A stretch of DNA of 64,000 nt from Escherichia coli (GTDB lineage Bacteria > Pseudomonadota > Gammaproteobacteria > Enterobacterales > Enterobacteriaceae), in the NCBI RefSeq assembly GCF_022846255.1, contig NZ_AP025682.1; one strand, given 5' to 3'. The position numbers and the translations under genes were made by a program. Shown here in pieces: positions 4,435-63,247 of this stretch. The notes under the pieces are model-generated. The model had not been told where the DNA came from and made no database searches. It saw only the letters and a program-made list of their open reading frames with translations. Every line of letters begins with the position of its first letter. Positions within the stretch are counted from its first letter, which is position 1.

Positions 4435-4470
4435 GTGCTCTGAGATGTGGCTTAACGAGGAAAAAGACGT

Positions 4471-5988
4471 ATGTGCGGTATTGTCGGTATCGCCGGTGTT
4501 ATGCCGGTTAACCAGTCGATTTATGATGCCTTAACGGTGCTTCAGCATCGCGGTCAGGATGCCGCCGGCATCATCACCATAGATGCCAATAACTGCTTCC
4601 GTTTGCGTAAAGCGAACGGGCTGGTGAGCGATGTATTTGAAGCTCGCCATATGCAGCGTTTGCAGGGCAATATGGGCATTGGTCATGTGCGTTACCCTAC
4701 GGCTGGCAGCTCCAGCGCCTCTGAAGCGCAGCCGTTTTACGTTAACTCTCCGTATGGCATTACGCTTGCCCACAACGGCAATCTGACCAACGCTCACGAG
4801 TTGCGTAAAAAACTGTTTGAAGAAAAACGCCGCCACATCAACACCACTTCCGACTCGGAAATTCTGCTTAATATCTTTGCCAGCGAACTGGACAACTTCC
4901 GCCACTACCCGCTGGAAGCCGACAACATTTTCGCCGCCATCGCTGCTACAAACCGCTTAATCCGCGGCGCGTATGCCTGTGTGGCGATGATTATCGGCCA
5001 CGGTATGGTTGCTTTCCGCGATCCAAACGGGATTCGTCCGCTGGTACTGGGGAAACGTGATATTGACGAGAACCGTACAGAATATATGGTCGCTTCCGAA
5101 AGCGTTGCGCTCGATACGCTGGGCTTTGATTTCCTGCGTGACGTCGCGCCGGGCGAAGCGATTTACATCACTGAAGAAGGGCAGTTGTTTACCCGTCAAT
5201 GTGCTGACAATCCGGTCAGCAATCCGTGCCTGTTTGAGTATGTATACTTTGCCCGCCCGGACTCGTTCATCGACAAAATTTCCGTTTACAGCGCGCGCGT
5301 GAATATGGGCACCAAACTGGGCGAAAAAATTGCCCGCGAATGGGAAGATCTGGATATCGACGTGGTGATCCCTATTCCGGAAACCTCGTGCGATATCGCG
5401 CTGGAAATTGCGCGTATTCTGGGCAAACCGTACCGCCAGGGCTTCGTTAAAAACCGCTATGTTGGCCGCACCTTCATCATGCCGGGTCAGCAGCTGCGTC
5501 GTAAGTCCGTGCGCCGTAAACTGAACGCCAACCGCGCCGAGTTCCGCGATAAAAACGTCCTGCTGGTCGACGACTCTATCGTCCGTGGCACCACGTCTGA
5601 GCAGATTATCGAGATGGCACGCGAAGCCGGAGCGAAGAAAGTGTACCTCGCTTCTGCGGCACCGGAAATTCGCTTCCCGAACGTTTACGGTATCGATATG
5701 CCGAGCGCCACGGAACTGATCGCTCACGGTCGCGAAGTAGATGAAATTCGCCAGATCATCGGTGCTGACGGGTTGATTTTCCAGGATCTGAACGATCTGA
5801 TCGAAGCCGTTCGCGCTGAAAACCCGGATATCCAGCAGTTTGAATGCTCGGTGTTCAACGGCGTCTACGTCACCAAAGACGTTGATCAGAGCTATCTCGA
5901 TTTTCTTGATACTTTACGTAATGACGATGCCAAAGCCGTGCAACGTCAGAACGAAGTGGAAAATCTCGAAATGCATAACGAAGGATAA
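4471..5988 (+). CDS. purF: Amidophosphoribosyltransferase
   Basis: 505 aa, N-terminal MCGIVGI (Ntn-hydrolase Cys1), PRTase motif. Confidence 0.98.
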
Positions 5989-6082: not shown

Positions 6083-6652
6083 ATGAAACGACTCATTGTA
6101 GGCATCAGCGGTGCCAGCGGCGCGATTTATGGCGTGCGCTTATTACAGGTTCTGCGCGATGTCGCAGATGTTGAAACGCATCTGGTGATGAGCCAGGCCG
6201 CGCGCCAGACCTTATCTCTTGAAACGGATTTTTCCCTGCGCGAAGTGCAGGCGTTAGCTGATGTGACGCACGATGCGCGCGATATTGCTGCCAGCATCTC
6301 TTCTGGTTCTTTCCAGACGCTGGGGATGGTGATTTTACCCTGTTCAATCAAAACCCTGTCCGGCATTGTCCATAGCTATACTGATGGCTTACTGACCCGT
6401 GCGGCAGATGTGGTGCTGAAAGAGCGTCGCCCGCTGGTGCTCTGCGTGCGTGAAACACCATTGCACTTAGGCCATCTGCGTTTAATGACCCAGGCGGCAG
6501 AAATTGGTGCGGTGATTATGCCTCCCGTTCCGGCGTTTTATCATCGCCCGCAATCCCTTGATGATGTGATAAATCAGACGGTTAATCGTGTTCTTGACCA
6601 GTTTGCGATAACCCTTCCTGAAGATCTCTTTGCCCGCTGGCAGGGCGCATAA
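6083..6652 (+). CDS. ubiX: Flavin prenyltransferase UbiX
   Basis: 189-aa ORF MKRLIVGISGASGAIYG..., flavoprotein fold signature. Confidence 0.96.
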   Translation: MKRLIVGISGASGAIYGVRLLQVLRDVADVETHLVMSQAARQTLSLETDFSLREVQALADVTHDARDIAASISSGSFQTLGMVILPCSIKTLSGIVHSYTDGLLTRAADVVLKERRPLVLCVRETPLHLGHLRLMTQAAEIGAVIMPPVPAFYHRPQSLDDVINQTVNRVLDQFAITLPEDLFARWQGA

Positions 6653-16075: not shown

Positions 16076-16109
16076 AAAAAGAGCCGCAATTGCGGCTCTT
16101 AACATTTTT
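16075..16109. terminator. Bidirectional terminator between convergent yfcD and yfcC
   Basis: A6-AGAGCCGCAATTGCGGCTCT-TAACATTTTT. Confidence 0.7.
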
Positions 16110-53213: not shown

Positions 53214-54175
53214 TGCGTAGCGCGCAGGTATACCGCTGGCAGATCCCCATGGACGCGGGGGTGGTTCTGCGCGACAGGCGGTTAAAAACCCGCGACGGGC
53301 TGTATGTTTGCCTGCGTGAAGGCGAGCGCGAAGGGTGGGGGGAGATCTCCCCACTGCCGGGCTTCAGTCAGGAAACCTGGGAAGAGGCGCAAAGTGTGCT
53401 GCTTGCCTGGGTAAATAACTGGCTGGCAGGCGATTGCGAATTACCGCAGCTGCCTTCCGTCGCCTTTGGCGTAAGCTGTGCATTGGCGGAGCTGGCAGAT
53501 ACGCTCCCGCAGGCGGCCAATTACCGTGCGGCACCACTATGTAACGGCGATCCTGACGATCTGATCCTCAAACTTGCTGATATGCCAGGCGAGAAAGTAG
53601 CGAAGGTCAAAGTGGGATTGTACGAAGCCGTGCGCGACGGCATGGTGGTTAATCTGTTGCTGGAGGTAATTCCGGATCTGCATTTGCGTCTTGACGCGAA
53701 TCGCGCCTGGACACCGCTGAAAGGCCAGCAGTTTGCCAAATATGTTAACCCGGATTATCGCCACCGCATCGCGTTTCTCGAAGAGCCGTGCAAAACCCGC
53801 GATGATTCGCGAGCGTTTGCCCGTGAAACCGGCATTGCCATTGCCTGGGATGAAAGCCTGCGCGAGCCGGATTTTGCCTTTGTGGCTGAAGATGGCGTGC
53901 GCGCGGTAGTTATCAAACCCACGCTCACGGGCAGTCTGGAAAAAGTACGCGAGCAGGTACAGGCGGCGCACGCGCTGGGGCTGACGGCGGTGATCAGTTC
54001 TTCCATTGAATCGAGCTTAGGCTTAACGCAACTGGCGCGGATTGCCGCCTGGTTAACGCCGGACACCATTCCAGGGCTGGACACGCTGGATCTGATGCAG
54101 GCGCAGCAGGTACGTCGCTGGCCGGGTAGCACGCTGCCTGTCGTGGAAGTTGATGCACTGGAGCGGTTGTTATGA
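53213..54175 (+). CDS. menC: o-succinylbenzoate synthase
   Basis: 320-aa enolase-superfamily ORF; 1-nt overlap with menB. Confidence 0.96.
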
Positions 54176-55527
54176 TCTTCTCTGACTGGCCGTGGCGTCA
54201 CTGGCGGCAAGTGCGGGGAGAAGCTATCGCCTTACGTCTTAATGACGAGCAACTCAACTGGCGCGAGCTTTGTGCTCGCGTCGATGAATTAGCCTCCGGA
54301 TTTGCGGTGCAGGGCGTAGTTGAGGGCAGCGGCGTGATGTTGCGGGCGTGGAATACGCCGCAAACGCTGCTCGCCTGGCTGGCGTTACTGCAATGCGGGG
54401 CGCGGGTGTTGCCCGTGAACCCTCAGCTGCCGCAACCGTTGCTTGAAGAATTGCTGCCCAATCTGACGCTGCAATTTGCGCTGGTGCCGGATGGGGAAAA
54501 CACGTTTCCGGCATTAACGTCGCTGCACATTCAGCGGGTTGAAGGCGCACATGCCGCTACGTGGCAGCCGACGCGTCTGTGCTCAATGACGTTGACCTCG
54601 GGTTCTACCGGGCTGCCGAAAGCCGCTGTCCATACTTATCAGGCCCATCTTGCCAGTGCCGAAGGGGTGTTATCGTTGATTCCGTTTGGCGATCACGATG
54701 ACTGGTTGCTCTCTTTACCGCTGTTTCACGTCTCCGGTCAGGGAATTATGTGGCGCTGGTTATACGCTGGTGCGCGGATGACGGTGCGTGATAAACAGCC
54801 ATTGGAGCAAATGCTGGCAGGCTGTACTCACGCTTCACTGGTGCCAACACAACTCTGGCGTTTGCTGGTTAACCGCAGTTCCGTTTCCCTGAAAGCGGTG
54901 TTACTTGGCGGCGCGGCTATCCCGGTCGAGTTGACGGAACAGGCGCGCGAGCAGGGGATTCGTTGCTTTTGCGGCTATGGTCTGACCGAGTTTGCCTCCA
55001 CGGTGTGTGCGAAAGAAGCCGACGGTCTGGCAGACGTTGGTTCGCCGCTGCCGGGTCGGGAAGTGAAAATCGTTAATGATGAAGTGTGGCTGCGGGCTGC
55101 CAGTATGGCAGAAGGTTACTGGCGTAACGGGCAACTGGTTTCACTGGTTAATGACGAAGGCTGGTACGCTACGCGCGATCGCGGTGAGATGCATAATGGC
55201 AAGCTGACCATTGTCGGACGTTTAGACAATCTATTCTTCAGTGGCGGAGAGGGTATTCAGCCGGAAGAAGTCGAGCGCGTAATTGCTGCACATCCTGCGG
55301 TTTTGCAGGTGTTTATCGTCCCCGTTGCCGACAAGGAGTTTGGTCATCGACCGGTGGCGGTGGTGGAGTATGACCAGCAAACCGTTGATCTTGACGAATG
55401 GGTGAAAGACAAGCTGGCTCGTTTTCAACAACCGGTGCGCTGGCTGAATCTGCCGCCGGAGCTGAAAAACGGCGGTATTAAAATTTCACGTCAGGCGCTA
55501 AAAGAGTGGGTGCAACGCCAGCAATAA
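54172..55527 (+). CDS. menE: o-succinylbenzoate-CoA ligase
   Basis: 451-aa adenylate-forming enzyme (..TSGSTGLPK..). Confidence 0.96.
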
Positions 55528-55636
55528 TTAACCCTCCGTTTCACTTCTCATTTCTGCCATTCCATTGCCGTTGATAAAGAGTTTATCTGTTAATCTGTAA
55601 ATTGATGTGAAAACTCTTAGCAAACAGGATAATGCA

Positions 55637-55903
55637 ATGGAATGGCTGGTCAAAAAATCGTGCTGCAATAAACAAGATAACAGACATGTAATTATGCTCT
55701 GCGATGCTGGCGGCGCGATAAAAATGATCGCCGAAGTGAAGAGTGACTTCGCCGTGAAAGTGGGGGATTTACTCTCGCCTTTGCAGAATGCGCTTTACTG
55801 TATTAATCGTGAAAAGCTGCACACGGTGAAAGTCCTTTCTGCAAGCTGTTATAGCCCCGATGAGTGGGAACGGCAGTGTAAAGCGGCAGGGAAAACTCAG
55901 TAA
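55637..55903 (+). CDS. pmrD: Signal transduction protein PmrD
   Basis: ORF 55607..55903; start set at ATG giving [13 protein letters not shown]..., 88 aa. Confidence 0.92.
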
Positions 55904-56283
55904 CGTTGTTTTGTTGTGGGCAGGAAAATCAGCATCAACCCGCTCATAATACAGGCTACTCCCAGTAGTGCTTTCAGCGAAAAAGTCCCTTCCCAGCCGG
56001 GAAGTACCATTGAAGCAATCCATACCAGCACATAACTCATACTGAGCAAGGCATAGGCTTTGCTTAGTGCAAGTTTATGTAGTGTTTTATACCAACAAAA
56101 AACGGAAAGCAGATAACCCAGCAGCCCGAGTAACAGTATCCGGGCATCCAGGCCAAAAGCTAACAACGCCGCGATAAAATCCCATAAGTGCGTCATCGGC
56201 GGCAGATGACTCGCCGCAAAACCCAGGCTTAATTGCGCAGCGGAGGCGATAATGACGCTGAATAATCCCCACATCAGGCCCAT
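55897..56283 (-). CDS. arnF: Undecaprenyl-phosphate-L-Ara4N flippase subunit ArnF
   Basis: ORF 55897..56565; start set at ATG giving [10 protein letters not shown]..., 128 aa. Confidence 0.93.
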
Positions 56284-56618
56284 TACACGGTACTCCCGAG
56301 GATCACAATGCCACCAATAATGAACGCCACCCCACACCAGTGACGCGGCGATACCGGTTCGTGCCACAGTTTTACTGCAGCCAGCGTCACCCAGACAAAA
56401 TTCAGACTTAACATCGGGTAGGCAATGCCTACCGGTACGTTCTGCAAGACCAGCAGCCAGAGCACCATGGCAAGACCAAGACAAGCCAGCGCCAGTCCCA
56501 GCCACAGCACGATATGTTTGCGCCGTTTGTTTATCGCCACAAAGCAGGTTGCCTGTTTCTGACACAACTGCCCGGCAACGCTAAGCAAGCTGGCAAAGAC
56601 TAATGTTAGCCAGATCAT
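56283..56618 (-). CDS. arnE: Undecaprenyl-phosphate-L-Ara4N flippase subunit ArnE
   Basis: 111-aa membrane ORF; overlaps arnF and arnT. Confidence 0.93.
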
Positions 56619-58267
56619 TTGGGACGATACTGAATCAGCACCAGACGCTCCTGACGATCGATGGCATCTGCGGGCGGAATGGCGAGACTGTTGATATCTT
56701 CATTGCGGTCAACCGAAAGCACGAGTGTAATAATCCCCTCCTGACGATGTTGATTAAGCCAGTTTGCGAACTCATCACCGCTGACAAATCTCCCTTTCGC
56801 ATCCGGATAATTAAGGCCGTATTTCAACTCACCTGTCTGGCGATACATGATGATGTCATCGCGTTGCAGGCTCCATGCCAGACCTGCGGCAACACCGACG
56901 CTATCAGTAAGAATATAGCGGCTTGGCTGAAGTGATTCTTGTGTCATCTCGACAAAAAATTGCGGATGTTTTCCTTCCATGACTCTGTCAGGAATTGAAA
57001 ATCCTACCAGCAACGCCAGCCCCAGCGGGCAAAGCGCGGCAAAAGACCAGGTCTTTTCGACGTTTGTTAAGGTGTACCAGCCGAAAAATGCCCATAGCGA
57101 AAAAATCGACCAGGCACAAAAGACTTTATAGCTCTCGAAGGTTTGCCACACCGGCGTGTTCATTGCTCCCCAGGGGGAGACCACAAATGTGGCAATAATG
57201 CCAGTGACGCCAAAAGCGATGTTAATCCAGCCATTAATCCGCAACGCCAGAGGATTATTTTTTGCTGCCAGCAAAGCGTAATGCGCCATCAGCATTGCCA
57301 GAGGAGCAAAGCAAGAAAGAATATAGGTGGGCAATTTGCCTTTGGCGACGGAGAAAAACAACAGCGGCATTATCGTCCAGCTCAACAAATAGACGGTTGC
57401 GGAATGCTTGCGGTTTTTCCAGCCTGCGTACAGTGCTCCGGGGAGTAATCCCAGCCACGGCAGGCTACCGGCAATGATGACCGGCAAGTAGTACCAGAAC
57501 GGAGCTCTATGCTGAGCATCATCCATTGCAAAGCGTTGAATATGCTCAACCCAGAAAAAATAGTGCCAGAAGTCAGGCTCCCGCTGCGCTATCGCCAGTC
57601 CCCAGGGGAGAACCGTCAGTACGCAACTGATGACCGCCAGCCAGCCGTAAATAAAGAGATCTTTCCAGCGTTTTTGCGTTGTAACCCATGGAAGCACGCT
57701 TAATACCGGCACGGCAAGGGCGAGAAAACCTTTGGTCATCACCCCCATGCCGCAGGTGATTCCCAGCAGTAAAAATCCTGCGCTTTTGCCTTTCCACGTC
57801 TGTGCCTGCATTGCCAGCCAGAAGCTGCACATTCCCGCCACCAGCCAGAAGGCAATAAACGGATCGAGCACGGCATAAGTGCCGATGGCATAGACAATGA
57901 ACAATGAGAGGTAAATCACTGCGGCGAGTAATGCCAGACGTTTATCGCGCCATAAGCGCAGAGTAAACCAGGTCACCAGCGCGGCAGTTAACAGGGTCGC
58001 AAAGATAACGCCTGCCCGCACACCAAAGTTATTCGCGCCAAATAGCCATTGCCCAATGCTGTTAATCCAGTATCCGGCAATGGGTTTTTCGAAATAACGT
58101 AGTCCTAACAGATGGGGAACAATCCAGTCGCCGGATGCCAGCATTTCCCGACTGATTTCCGCATAACGCGTTTCATCGGGTTGCCAGAGCAGACGCGTGC
58201 TGATCGGTAACAGGTAATAGCAGGCAATAAATGCGAAGAGGCCGATAAGGTAACGTACCGATTTCAT
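56615..58267 (-). CDS. arnT: Undecaprenyl-phosphate-L-Ara4N:lipid A transferase
   Basis: 550-aa polytopic glycosyltransferase. Confidence 0.96.
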
Positions 58268-59157
58268 CAGTGACTACCCGCAATTTGTTGGCAACCCAGC
58301 CAGCCTTCACGTCCGGCAATATTTCCGCGAACAACTTGTCCGAGCGGCAACGTCCCTGATAACAGTTCGCTTAAAGGGCAAAATGTCACGCCTTCCTGAG
58401 CTGCGCGTTTCAGGAGATCCACAAAATTATGCTGATAAGCGCAGCCTTCAACTTCGGCATGAATGGTATAAACCGGCGTGCCTTTATCTCGCTGGATGCG
58501 GTTGAGTAACCAACCGTTAAAATCTTCTGCTTTCACATCCCGACCAATCACTTCATCCCAGGTGGGTAAGGTCACCGGAATTTGCGCAGTGCCAGGGGTT
58601 CCTGATTCGAGCAATGGACGAAACGGCATCGCCCCACGACAATCGCTGTTGTAGCGCAAATGGAACGCTTCTTTTGCTTCGATCACCTGTTGGTCAGCAC
58701 GCCAGCCAGCAGCGGCAGAACAGGTTACCGGTTGACCGATAATCTCTTCCAGGGTGCGAAGGCCGCGTGCAATATCGTCGATCATTGTTTGCCGATCCCA
58801 ATTACCGCTATGGGCTTGCCAGGCATGGTGATCCCAGGCGTGCAGGCCGACTTCGTGATGTTTAGCCGCTTCACGAATGATATCGGCATTGGCATGACCA
58901 ATCTCTTTACCTGGCCAGGCCGTACCTGCCAGTAAAATATCCCAGCCATAAAGCGATGCCGCGTTTGAGCGCAGCATCTTCCACAAAAACTGTGGCTTCA
59001 CCAGTCGCCAGAGATGGCGGCCCATATTGTCCGGGCCGACGCTGAAAAAAATGCTGGCCTGAATATTATGCTTACTCAAGATTTCCAGCAGACGCGGCAC
59101 GCCTTCACGGGTGCCACGAAAGGTATCGACATCAATGCGTAAGCCGACTTTGGTCAT
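58267..59157 (-). CDS. arnD: 4-deoxy-4-formamido-L-arabinose-phosphoundecaprenol deformylase
   Basis: 296-aa ORF recognised as ArnD. Confidence 0.96.
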
Positions 59158-62107: not shown

Positions 62108-63247
62108 TTATTGTCCTGCGAGTTGCTGAAGGGCTGTGATGACGCGGTCGGCATCGGCGGTAGTCATATCCGGGAACAGCGGCAACGAACAGATGCGTTC
62201 GCTATTCCATTCGGTATTCGGTAACGACAGCGTGGGAAAACGCTCGCGATAATATTTTTGTGTGTGAGCGGCGCGGAAATGTAACCCGGTACCAATACCT
62301 CTTTCTTTTAACGCTTCCATCAACGCATCGCGACTGATACCACAACGTTGTTCATCGACACGAATAATAAACAGATGCCAGGCGTGAACGTGCGGCCAGG
62401 CGGGAAGGCTTAATGGCTGAAAAGGGAGAGCTGCCAGTGCTTGTTGATATTGCAGAGCAATTTCGCGCCGACGGGTGTTGAGGTGCTCTAATTTGGCTAA
62501 CTGGGTCAGGGCAATCGCGGCGTTAATATCGGTCAGATTATACTTATAGCCCGGCGTTAAGACTTCAGCTTGCGGTGCACGGCCCCAGGTTTGTCTGTCA
62601 TAGGCATCGACACCCAGACCGTGAAATTTTAGCATCCGTAGCTGGCGGGCAAGGTTTTCATTATCTGTAACAATCAGGCCACCTTCCGCACAGGTAATAT
62701 TTTTGATGGCGTGAAACGAAAAAATAGCGGTACCTTTTGCACCAATATGTCGCCCTTTGTAATACGTACCGACGGCATGGGCAGCATCTTCGATAACTGC
62801 GATGCCGTAACGTTCGCCAATGGCGCGAATGGCGTCAATATCTGCTGGCGCACCGGCATAATGCACCGGAATGATGGCTTTAGTGCGTGGCGTAATGGCT
62901 GCTTCGATCGTTTCAGGAGTGACCATCAGCGTATCGCGGTCGACATCCACCATTACCGGCGTTGCACCCAACAAGGAGATCATATTGAGGGTTGAAACCC
63001 AGGTCAGGGAAGGCGTAATCACTTCATCGCCCTTGCCAATTTCCAACGCCATTAGCGTGATATGCATTCCGGCGGTGGCTGAACTGACCGCGATGGCATG
63101 CTGATTTCCCGTCAACTGGCAAAAGGCTTGTTCAAGCGCGTGATTCTTCGGACCGGTTGTGATCCAACCGGATTCGAGAACCTCTTTAACTGCAGCGAGT
63201 TCCTCCACGCCCATTGCTGGTCGCGAAAAAGGCAAAAATTCTGACAT
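62108..63247 (-). CDS. arnB: UDP-4-amino-4-deoxy-L-arabinose-oxoglutarate aminotransferase
   Basis: ORF 62108..63280; start set at ATG giving [10 protein letters not shown]... (379 aa) with SD GGAAGGA upstream; 63280 possible. Confidence 0.95.

Follow-up and report, generated by a model that had tools for sequence, protein, structure and literature searches.

Convergent bacterial genes that overlap tail to tail have interleaved stop codons and a short overlap, and their stop codons move within nonconserved C-terminal tails. In Escherichia coli, 75 such convergent overlapping pairs occur among 4,131 adjacent pairs (Huvet & Stumpf 2014). Where two transcription units converge, a nascent-RNA stem-loop is needed to position RNA polymerase collisions, and head-on collisions can contribute to termination (Wang, Watters, Ju & Liu 2022, bioRxiv 10.1101/2022.10.23.513370). 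Rho-dependent mRNAs of E. coli end directly 3′ of stable stem-loops that lack a U-tract and protect against exonucleases, with a rut site just downstream (Dar & Sorek, NAR 2018, PMC6061677). Stronger antisense transcription, in turn, can bring proportionally stronger repression in E. coli (Brophy & Voigt 2016). Here, we describe the convergent pair pmrD/arnF, a typical member of the tail-to-tail class that is notable solely because both genes serve the lipid A modification pathway.

The transcripts of this pair have been reported to overlap. Using ExcludonFinder, Sanmartin et al. (NAR 2025, PMC12288877) listed arnF-pmrD among 165 convergent excludons of E. coli MG1655, the criterion being an overlap of the transcripts defined by RNA-seq in 50% or more of the 58 samples, and named it as a same-pathway pair; validation of double-stranded RNA with p19 was not feasible for convergent pairs in that study. 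The defining features of excludons are opposite expression and RNase III processing, whereas arnF-pmrD was placed among them by RNA-seq coverage overlap alone, which an expressed pair will show almost automatically because the two coding sequences themselves overlap. Given this listing, the overlap is not new. Both the overlap and the possibility that it matters are already in print; the new leads are a stem-loop embedded in arnF and an inverted repeat at the pmrD promoter.

Transcription of pmrD is activated by PhoP, and its product is a connector protein that protects phospho-PmrA (PmrA-P). PmrD sustains PmrA-P, which activates the arn operon, and co-induction of pmrD and arn is therefore predicted. 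In Salmonella, PmrA-P also binds the pmrD promoter, resulting in negative feedback; the passage of Chen et al. 2011 (PMC3140997) that cites this loop describes it as absent in E. coli. Read-through from arn into pmrD would share the logic of the Salmonella loop, in which the output of the regulon feeds back on the connector gene, but the known feedback operates by promoter binding, not by antisense transcription.

RESULTS

The 3′ ends of pmrD and arnF share 7 nt

The DNA analyzed here (the window) is a 64-kb stretch of the E. coli chromosome, with positions counted from its first nucleotide. Three features define the junction:

55637..55903, plus strand: pmrD, 88 amino acids, stop codon TAA at 55901..55903 (sequence reading, ORF list, NCBIfam, RefSeq)
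55897..56283, minus strand: arnF, 128 amino acids, stop codon TGA as the reverse complement of 55897..55899 (ORF list, NCBIfam, RefSeq)
55897..55903, both strands: 7-nt overlap TCAGTAA, spanning both stop codons and the final codon of pmrD (CAG)

On direct reading, the plus strand ends pmrD with ...AAA ACT CAG TAA and carries TCA at 55897..55899. The ORF list agrees, with the plus-strand ORF ending at 55903 and the minus-strand ORF ending at 55897, leaving 7 nt common to both. The stop codons are interleaved (TCAGTAA), and there is therefore zero intergenic DNA. Both products scored above the cutoffs of their NCBIfam equivalog models (96 for PmrD, which reached 176.6 bits, and 99 for ArnF, which reached 139.6 bits), and an identical 88-residue PmrD ending in ...AGKTQ is present in PDB entries 2JSO and 4HN7. 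The locus is thus a convergent overlapping gene pair in both respects, consisting of genuine opposite-strand coding sequences whose 3′ ends have nucleotides in common. A first-pass annotation of this DNA was correct in its coordinates, its gene identities, and its overlap of 7 nt, as judged by sequence reading, ORF list, NCBIfam, and RefSeq.

The PmrD family model spans residues 1 to 85 of 88 and the ArnF model residues 4 to 122 of 128. Because these models end before both C termini, the overlap sits in nonconserved C-terminal tails; loss of the stop codons would lengthen PmrD by 44 codons and ArnF by 16. An annotation artifact was considered and rejected, since the family models back both frames to within 3 to 6 codons of the stops and RefSeq carries both genes in divergent strains. 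The flanking genes encode ArnE, ArnT, and MenE. The arnBCADTEF operon, which PmrA activates, ends with arnF; coordinate mapping places the start of its leading gene, arnB, near 63247 on the minus strand.

The arrangement is conserved with a drift of a few bases between genera

An 801-bp locus covering the junction matched 5419 of 5426 complete genomes and was 100% identical to that of strain 2012C-4502. Taking the window to be 2012C-4502 throughout proved wrong, as the 100% identity is local and identity over the whole window is 98.4%; for this reason, the other convergent junctions were remeasured in the window itself. The same 7-nt overlap was found in the RefSeq annotation of every strain checked (local identities of 100%, 97.8%, 95.1%, and 94.2%). 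Of 5426 complete E. coli genomes, 5415 contained the junction fragment; the rare exceptions within the species included a pmrD with a frameshift and a truncated pmrD that is separated from arnF by an IS3 insertion.

We then collected 80 loci of other species via ArnT and located ArnF, PmrD, and MenE in each. The junctions were arranged as follows:

Escherichia sp. E1V33, E. whittamii, and E. albertii: 7-nt overlap of the arnF and pmrD stops
Salmonella enterica: 6-nt overlap, TCATGA
Citrobacter with pmrD: arnF-pmrD gap of 0 to 9 nt, mostly 2
Citrobacter lacking pmrD, where arnF faces menE: three gaps (4, 11, and 11 nt) and a single overlap of 53 nt

In the three other Escherichia species, the 7 nt were kept despite PmrD identities of 57 to 78% and pmrD stop codons of TGA, TGA, and TAG, and the overlap motif across Escherichia species was TCAGTRR. 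Alignment of the Citrobacter loci without pmrD indicated that a deletion of ∼345 bp took out the gene and left its last ∼25 nt. An independent origin of the tight menE/arnF junctions in these strains was accordingly rejected: they are remnants of the deletion. In Klebsiella, pmrD is located elsewhere, between a divergent hydrolase gene and amn. In many other genera, some convergent ORF abuts or overlaps the end of arnF, as detected by an ORF heuristic. We conclude that the pmrD/arnF arrangement is conserved and not accidental, with a drift of a few bases between genera (−7, −6, and 0 to +9).

The junction has no canonical terminator

A consensus scan of 55000..57000 returned five terminator-like sites compared to 2.2 ± 1.6 expected, and none of these was located 3′ of either the pmrD or the arnF stop. 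Folds of 80 nt centered on the junction were unremarkable on both strands (z of −0.5 to +0.7), and no curated RNA family matched at E ≤ 1 in 54000..58500 (Rfam 15). Like the system in which a stem-loop positions collisions (10.1101/2022.10.23.513370), pmrD/arnF is convergent and its polymerases must meet. In contrast to that system, the junction has no palindromic GC-rich hairpin flanked by A- and U-tracts, and a bidirectional intrinsic terminator between the genes is hence lacking at pmrD/arnF.

We compared this junction to its counterparts in the window. Of five convergent junctions, pmrD/arnF was the sole overlap, the other gaps measuring 32, 47, 58, and 66 nt. The yfcC/yfcD junction (16079..16100) has a textbook bidirectional terminator, the only one among the other four. 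Two of these four were without any terminator-like site in the same scan, and at one further junction the sole match was inside coding sequence, not in the spacer. Since most of the other junctions are without a spacer terminator, the absence of a canonical terminator is common at convergent junctions in this window. The pmrD/arnF junction is an old, compact tail-to-tail arrangement that leaves no space for a terminator, and it is not a special device.

With no intergenic DNA and no canonical terminator near the junction, each transcription unit must end inside the opposite gene. The first-pass annotation had proposed that the transcripts run into each other, which these two observations and the arnF-pmrD transcript overlap in published RNA-seq (PMC12288877) bear out. 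It had also stated that no terminator intervenes. That statement holds for a canonical or bidirectional terminator at the junction, as judged by the scan and the folds, but it needs to be qualified by a conserved stem-loop that lies 138 nt past the pmrD stop and is described below. The Term-seq and SMRT-Cappable-seq supplementary data that we searched contained no 3′-end entries for pmrD or arnF. A paper on the small RNA PhaS that mentions both pmrD and antisense proved to be unrelated, as PhaS targets phoP in Klebsiella.

A stem-loop antisense to arnF is conserved beyond what the ArnF peptide requires

On the pmrD strand, two features follow the pmrD stop:

55904..56040, plus strand: putative pmrD 3′ untranslated stretch, which would be antisense to the last ∼47 arnF codons if transcribed as pmrD RNA
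56041..56068, plus strand (pmrD-sense): hp_i, a 12-bp stem-loop, ACUGAGCAAGGC-AUAG-GCUUUGCUUAGU, −16.5 kcal/mol

The putative untranslated stretch is C-rich and G-poor on the plus strand (C/G of 1.5 to 1.8 in 78-nt windows, the 91st to 96th percentile of the window). Next to it, hp_i is antisense to arnF codons 72 to 82. It has no U-tract, its 3′ tail being GCAAGUUUAUG, and so has the form expected of a Rho-type structure, namely, a stable stem-loop 3′ of a stop codon with no U-rich tract after it.

The stability of hp_i was evaluated against a null in which the peptide was fixed and synonymous codons were resampled by each locus's own arnT codon usage. The species that carry hp_i form one monophyletic clade and so do not count as independent samples. 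The values were as follows:

hp_i in Escherichia and in Citrobacter with pmrD (n = 16): −18.7 kcal/mol versus −7.1 kcal/mol for the null; mean z of −3.35; P ≤ 0.05 in 15 of 16
hp_i in Citrobacter without pmrD (n = 4): −19.8 kcal/mol versus −6.9 kcal/mol for the null; mean z of −3.70
the hp_i site in other genera (n = 62): −8.7 kcal/mol versus −6.2 kcal/mol for the null; mean z of −0.87

We also scanned pmrD and arnF in 14 species with a window of 11 codons placed at every position on either strand (196 windows). Here, hp_i was the only site in either gene with a mean z below −2 (−17.7 kcal/mol; z of −3.5 in the pmrD sense and −2.4 in the arnF sense), and it was the best antisense window in 11 of the 14 species. 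The hairpin was weaker in Salmonella (−11.5 kcal/mol; z of −1.9) and was lost in one C. amalonaticus strain. A second hairpin at 55989..56004 (CTTCCCAGCCGGGAAG), which had also been flagged on the arnF-sense strand, was rejected, since its stability equaled the synonymous null (z about 0) and 76% of cells paired.

Pairing was examined over 22 distinct sequences, in which 94.3% of hp_i cells paired compared to 25 to 43% in slid controls, and three pairs were altered on both sides (e.g., GC:9, CG:7, GU:4). Pairing was higher on the plus strand than on the minus strand (94.3% versus 85.6%), with 32 versus 9 G·U cells. Similarly, E. coli hp_i reached −18.1 kcal/mol on the antisense strand (P = 0.01) but −8.6 kcal/mol on the sense strand (P = 0.14). 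The excess of G·U on the pmrD-sense strand therefore favors an RNA on that strand and argues against a DNA palindrome.

In Phytobacter and Kosakonia, which encode the same peptide and also have a convergent ORF that abuts arnF, the hairpin is weak (−10.1 kcal/mol; z of −0.7), indicating that neither the peptide nor convergence alone explains hp_i. We likewise rejected the idea that hp_i accompanies any tight convergent neighbor of arnF, given that Raoultella, Klebsiella, Phytobacter, Kosakonia, and others are without a stabilized hairpin even though a convergent ORF abuts their arnF.

Like the stem-loops of Dar & Sorek (PMC6061677), hp_i is stable, has no U-tract, and lies 3′ of a stop codon. 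In the 100 nt 3′ of hp_i, the RNA is moderately C-rich (C/G of 1.1 to 1.56, at about the 60th to 90th percentile of the window), which would be compatible with a rut region without marking it as one. The hairpin differs from those stem-loops in being a candidate predicted from sequence and, unusually, in being encoded antisense within the coding sequence of a neighbor and kept by synonymous-site constraint. By this resemblance to Rho-type 3′-end structures, hp_i may mark the end of the pmrD message, and we regard it as a candidate for defining or protecting the 3′ end of pmrD or men-pmrD transcripts.

No conserved counterpart is found for the arn transcript inside pmrD

Two features were considered for the arn transcript beyond the arnF stop:

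55807..55896, minus strand: the ∼90 nt that directly follow the arnF stop in the direction of arn transcription, untranslated, antisense to the pmrD 3′ end, weakly structured (z of −0.2)
55711..55754, minus strand: hairpin cluster seen only in E. coli, at pmrD codons ∼30 to 40, followed by GCGAUCAUUUUUAUCGC; −13.7 kcal/mol

The synonymous-null scan detected no conserved stem-loop for the arn transcript anywhere inside pmrD, and termination of this transcript is therefore probably diffuse. The first ∼90 nt past the stop have a C/G of about 1.5 on the minus strand (89th to 92nd percentile of the window), making this stretch a plausible candidate Rho loading region. The C/G ratio exceeds 1 past both stops and past hp_i; ratios at only the 75th to 96th percentile are suggestive, in that they fit Rho loading but are not diagnostic of it. 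The hairpin at 55711..55754 gave z values of −3.5 and −4.7 in two E. coli sequences and was not seen in other species; it is a weak, nonconserved candidate for an arn 3′ end.

An inverted repeat brackets the pmrD promoter region

On its upstream side, pmrD is preceded by the following:

54172..55527, plus strand: menE, which closes the men operon and reads in the same direction as pmrD, ending 109 nt before it (ORF list, RefSeq)
55556..55568, plus strand: 5′ arm of a perfect 13-nt inverted repeat, GCCATTCCATTGC
55634..55646, plus strand: 3′ arm of the same repeat, GCAATGGAATGGC

The consensus scan found no canonical terminator between menE and pmrD. The two arms of the repeat bracket the pmrD promoter region, and the start codon of pmrD (ATG at 55637) falls within the 3′ arm. 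In Escherichia, Salmonella, and Citrobacter taken together, 95.8% of the repeat's cells paired; G-C covaried to A-U, the substitution on the 3′ side exchanging one Leu codon for a synonymous one. An RNAalifold consensus of 19 sequences contained no helix other than the repeat. As a whole, the region 55556..55646 folded at −31.8 kcal/mol (z of −4.1) on the plus strand and −29.8 kcal/mol (z of −3.9) on the minus strand. The repeat was absent in Klebsiella, where pmrD has other neighbors.

Fold-back inhibition is known from IS10. Because no canonical terminator follows menE, the repeat could, by analogy, hide the pmrD start codon in RNA reading through from men. Alternatively, it could cap the men or the arn transcript. 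The repeat is possibly part of the insulation of pmrD from its neighbors.

DISCUSSION

On balance, we consider it somewhat probable that the locus combines compaction with an embedded Rho-type 3′ stem-loop of modest effect, the transcript ends and the role of Rho being those that we infer from the DNA. In this model, pmrD RNA would cross its own stop codon, run for ∼165 nt antisense through the last 57 arnF codons, and then fold the conserved 12-bp stem-loop at 56041..56068. Rho would terminate the RNA on the C-rich sequence just beyond hp_i, and trimming would proceed back to hp_i. The arn operon RNA, for its part, would continue past the arnF stop into sequence antisense to pmrD and would probably be ended diffusely by Rho on untranslated, C-rich RNA. 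An overlap of at least ∼170 nt between the two RNAs would result, and RNA-seq surveys would be registering it as the arnF-pmrD excludon. Any regulatory effect, whether by RNA polymerase collisions or by cleavage of double-stranded RNA, is probably a modest mutual damping on top of the known PhoP/PmrA control; a strong effect is disfavored by the distance of 7.3 kb to the arn promoter and by the predicted co-induction of the two units.

The proposed stem-loop has to be weighed against compaction alone, under which deletion bias produced both the overlap and the lack of a terminator and both are tolerated, hp_i reflects shared ancestry and the quasi-palindromic sequence coding for LSKAYALLS, and both transcripts fade by diffuse Rho termination and decay. 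Much of the junction itself agrees with this account: its position drifts between genera, tight or overlapping convergent ORFs with unrelated partners occur at the arnF end in many genera, and of the four other junctions in the window two are without a terminator-like site and a third has a match only within coding sequence. The absence of a U-tract in hp_i and its weakness or absence in Salmonella and one Citrobacter point the same way. Nevertheless, we judge compaction alone to be rather unlikely. At an ArnF protein divergence of ∼35%, hp_i exceeds synonymous recodings in stability by 11 kcal/mol, its pairs change in a compensatory manner, and among the 196 windows scanned on two strands there is no second site of this kind; the same peptide in Phytobacter and Kosakonia yields no such hairpin. 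Another reading is that hp_i is unrelated to pmrD and instead serves the arn mRNA (for example, in arnF translation or folding, as an RNase site, or in protein binding) or acts as a DNA palindrome. The arnF-sense strand does pair at 85.6%, four species pair better there, the sense-strand z is −2.4, and the hairpin persists in Citrobacter lacking pmrD. However, the G·U cells (32 in the pmrD sense, 9 on the other strand) and the E. coli folding energies (−18.1 against −8.6 kcal/mol; P of 0.01 and 0.14) favor the pmrD-sense strand, and the G·T positions speak against a palindrome. In the Citrobacter strains without pmrD, menE replaces it as the convergent unit, so the persistence of hp_i there also fits a role in a convergent transcript. 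We therefore consider a function apart from pmrD to be very unlikely.

A more active role for the overlap would be that of a working excludon, or cis-antisense feedback, in which PmrA-activated arn read-through, crossing all or most of pmrD on the opposite strand, lowers pmrD via collisions, promoter occlusion, or RNase III and so closes a negative loop between the output operon and the connector gene, while PhoP-driven transcription of pmrD trims arnF. We regard this as quite improbable. The arn promoter is far off, at 7.3 kb, and untranslated, C-rich RNA past the arnF stop should recruit Rho early. Moreover, pmrD and arn are co-induced and not mutually exclusive, as shown in Klebsiella, where the genes are unlinked; Klebsiella PmrD functions without any such neighbor; and a 3′-FLAG-tagged pmrD at the native Salmonella locus disturbs the overlap yet behaves normally. 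These points stand against the reported transcript overlap of a pair named as same-pathway (PMC12288877), the scaling of antisense repression with its strength in E. coli (Brophy & Voigt 2016), the lack of a conserved stop structure for arn RNA inside pmrD, and published, indirect evidence that colistin resistance arises from native fragments with the arnF side and not from the pmrD ORF alone. An alternative feedback route in E. coli would also make sense, because the PmrA-on-pmrD promoter feedback of Salmonella is said, where Chen et al. cite it, to be absent there.

An extended form of the model joins the two sides of pmrD. With no terminators on either side, the gene would be insulated by RNA structures written into its neighbors: the arnF stem-loop would give it a conserved ∼165-nt 3′ untranslated region antisense to arnF, the fold-back repeat would hide its start codon in menE read-through RNA, and arn read-through would act as cis-antisense feedback tuning polymyxin resistance. 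As a whole, this extension is distinctly doubtful.

The overlap itself is of little consequence, as it is annotated across the E. coli strains checked and is already catalogued as a transcriptional overlap. If hp_i defines the pmrD 3′ end, as in the combined reading of compaction and an embedded stem-loop, it would be a clear case of a 3′-end structure kept by synonymous-site selection inside a convergent gene. Recoding or deletion of arnF would then alter the pmrD mRNA, which would be relevant to engineering of the locus and to the reading of colistin-resistance mutations. If arn read-through damps pmrD, it would add an extra feedback loop to a much-studied two-component circuit.

An inverted repeat brackets the pmrD promoter region

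The interval between the menE stop codon (55525..55527) and pmrD was examined in a terminator scan, and no canonical terminator was found at 55528-55636. Transcription of the men operon may therefore read into pmrD. Canonical terminators are in fact missing on both flanks of the gene. The same upstream region carries the following element:

55556-55568 (GCCATTCCATTGC) and 55634-55646 (GCAATGGAATGGC): perfect 13-nt inverted repeat bracketing the pmrD promoter region

The pmrD start codon lies inside the 3' arm (55634-55646), and the repeat region has a folding z score of about -4 on both strands. Across Escherichia, Salmonella, and Citrobacter, the repeat has been kept and shows covariation; Klebsiella lacks it. 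The repeat may fold back to inhibit translation of pmrD from men read-through RNA, or it may cap the 3' end of a neighboring transcript.

Immediately 5' of the repeat arm, Salmonella (locus L084, 2896-2912) carries ATTAAT-GTTAG-GTTAAT, which resembles the PmrA box consensus. The E. coli counterpart (window ~55529-55545) reads ATTAAC-CCTCC-GTTTCA, the second half being degenerate. This degenerate half-site would fit the absence of PmrA feedback on pmrD that has been described for E. coli (Chen et al. 2011, PMC3140997).

In published functional cloning in BL21, colistin resistance was not increased by the pmrD open reading frame alone, although a strong promoter drove its expression, whereas colistin-resistant clones, which were chimeric, included the native fragments arnF-pmrD-menE-menC and arnT-arnE-arnF-pmrD (PMC8004244). 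With the chimeric nature of the clones kept in mind, this result is compatible with pmrD requiring flanking sequence, for example the 3' region inside arnF.

Loss and variation of pmrD

Four Citrobacter species (loci L015, L019, L020, and L021; around 6330-6480) are missing pmrD because of a ~345-bp deletion that starts where menE ends and leaves only the final ~25 nt of the pmrD gene. The end of menE now lies 4 to 11 nt from arnF in these species or, in C. gillenii, overlaps arnF by 53 nt. The stem-loop within arnF (hp_i) is still there. Within E. coli, pmrD is polymorphic (variant loci L085, 458-719, and L087, 975-2446): one strain has a frameshifted pmrD pseudogene, and in another an IS3 insertion separates a truncated pmrD from arnF. 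Several PmrD clusters of altered length were also found in this species (P0028, P0047, P0053, and P0056), either shortened (49 to 69 amino acids [aa]) or N-terminally extended (103 aa).

Elsewhere in the collinear E. coli strain NZ_CP027440.1, purF is annotated as frameshifted and the elaD deubiquitinase gene is reduced to a short fragment. Their window positions, transferred from the coordinates of that strain, are approximate (~4447-5965 and ~46352-46462, respectively).

Convergent junctions at arnF and elsewhere

In contrast to the arnF/pmrD junction, another convergent pair in the window is separated by a textbook terminator:

16079-16100: bidirectional terminator of textbook type, AAGAGCCGCAATTGCGGCTCTT between A- and T-runs, in the 32-nt gap of convergent yfcC and yfcD

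In many other Enterobacterales (loci L022-L083, about 6290-6600), an ORF heuristic places a convergent ORF, at least 90 codons long, directly next to the arnF stop or overlapping with it. By this heuristic, the gap from the arnF stop is, for example, 1 nt in Raoultella and Klebsiella and 0 in Phytobacter and Kosakonia, and at other loci the convergent ORF overlaps the arnF end by 4 to 50 nt. From these ORF positions, tight tail-to-tail packing of arnF, the last arn gene, looks widespread, with partner genes, taken as the heuristic ORFs, that appear unrelated.
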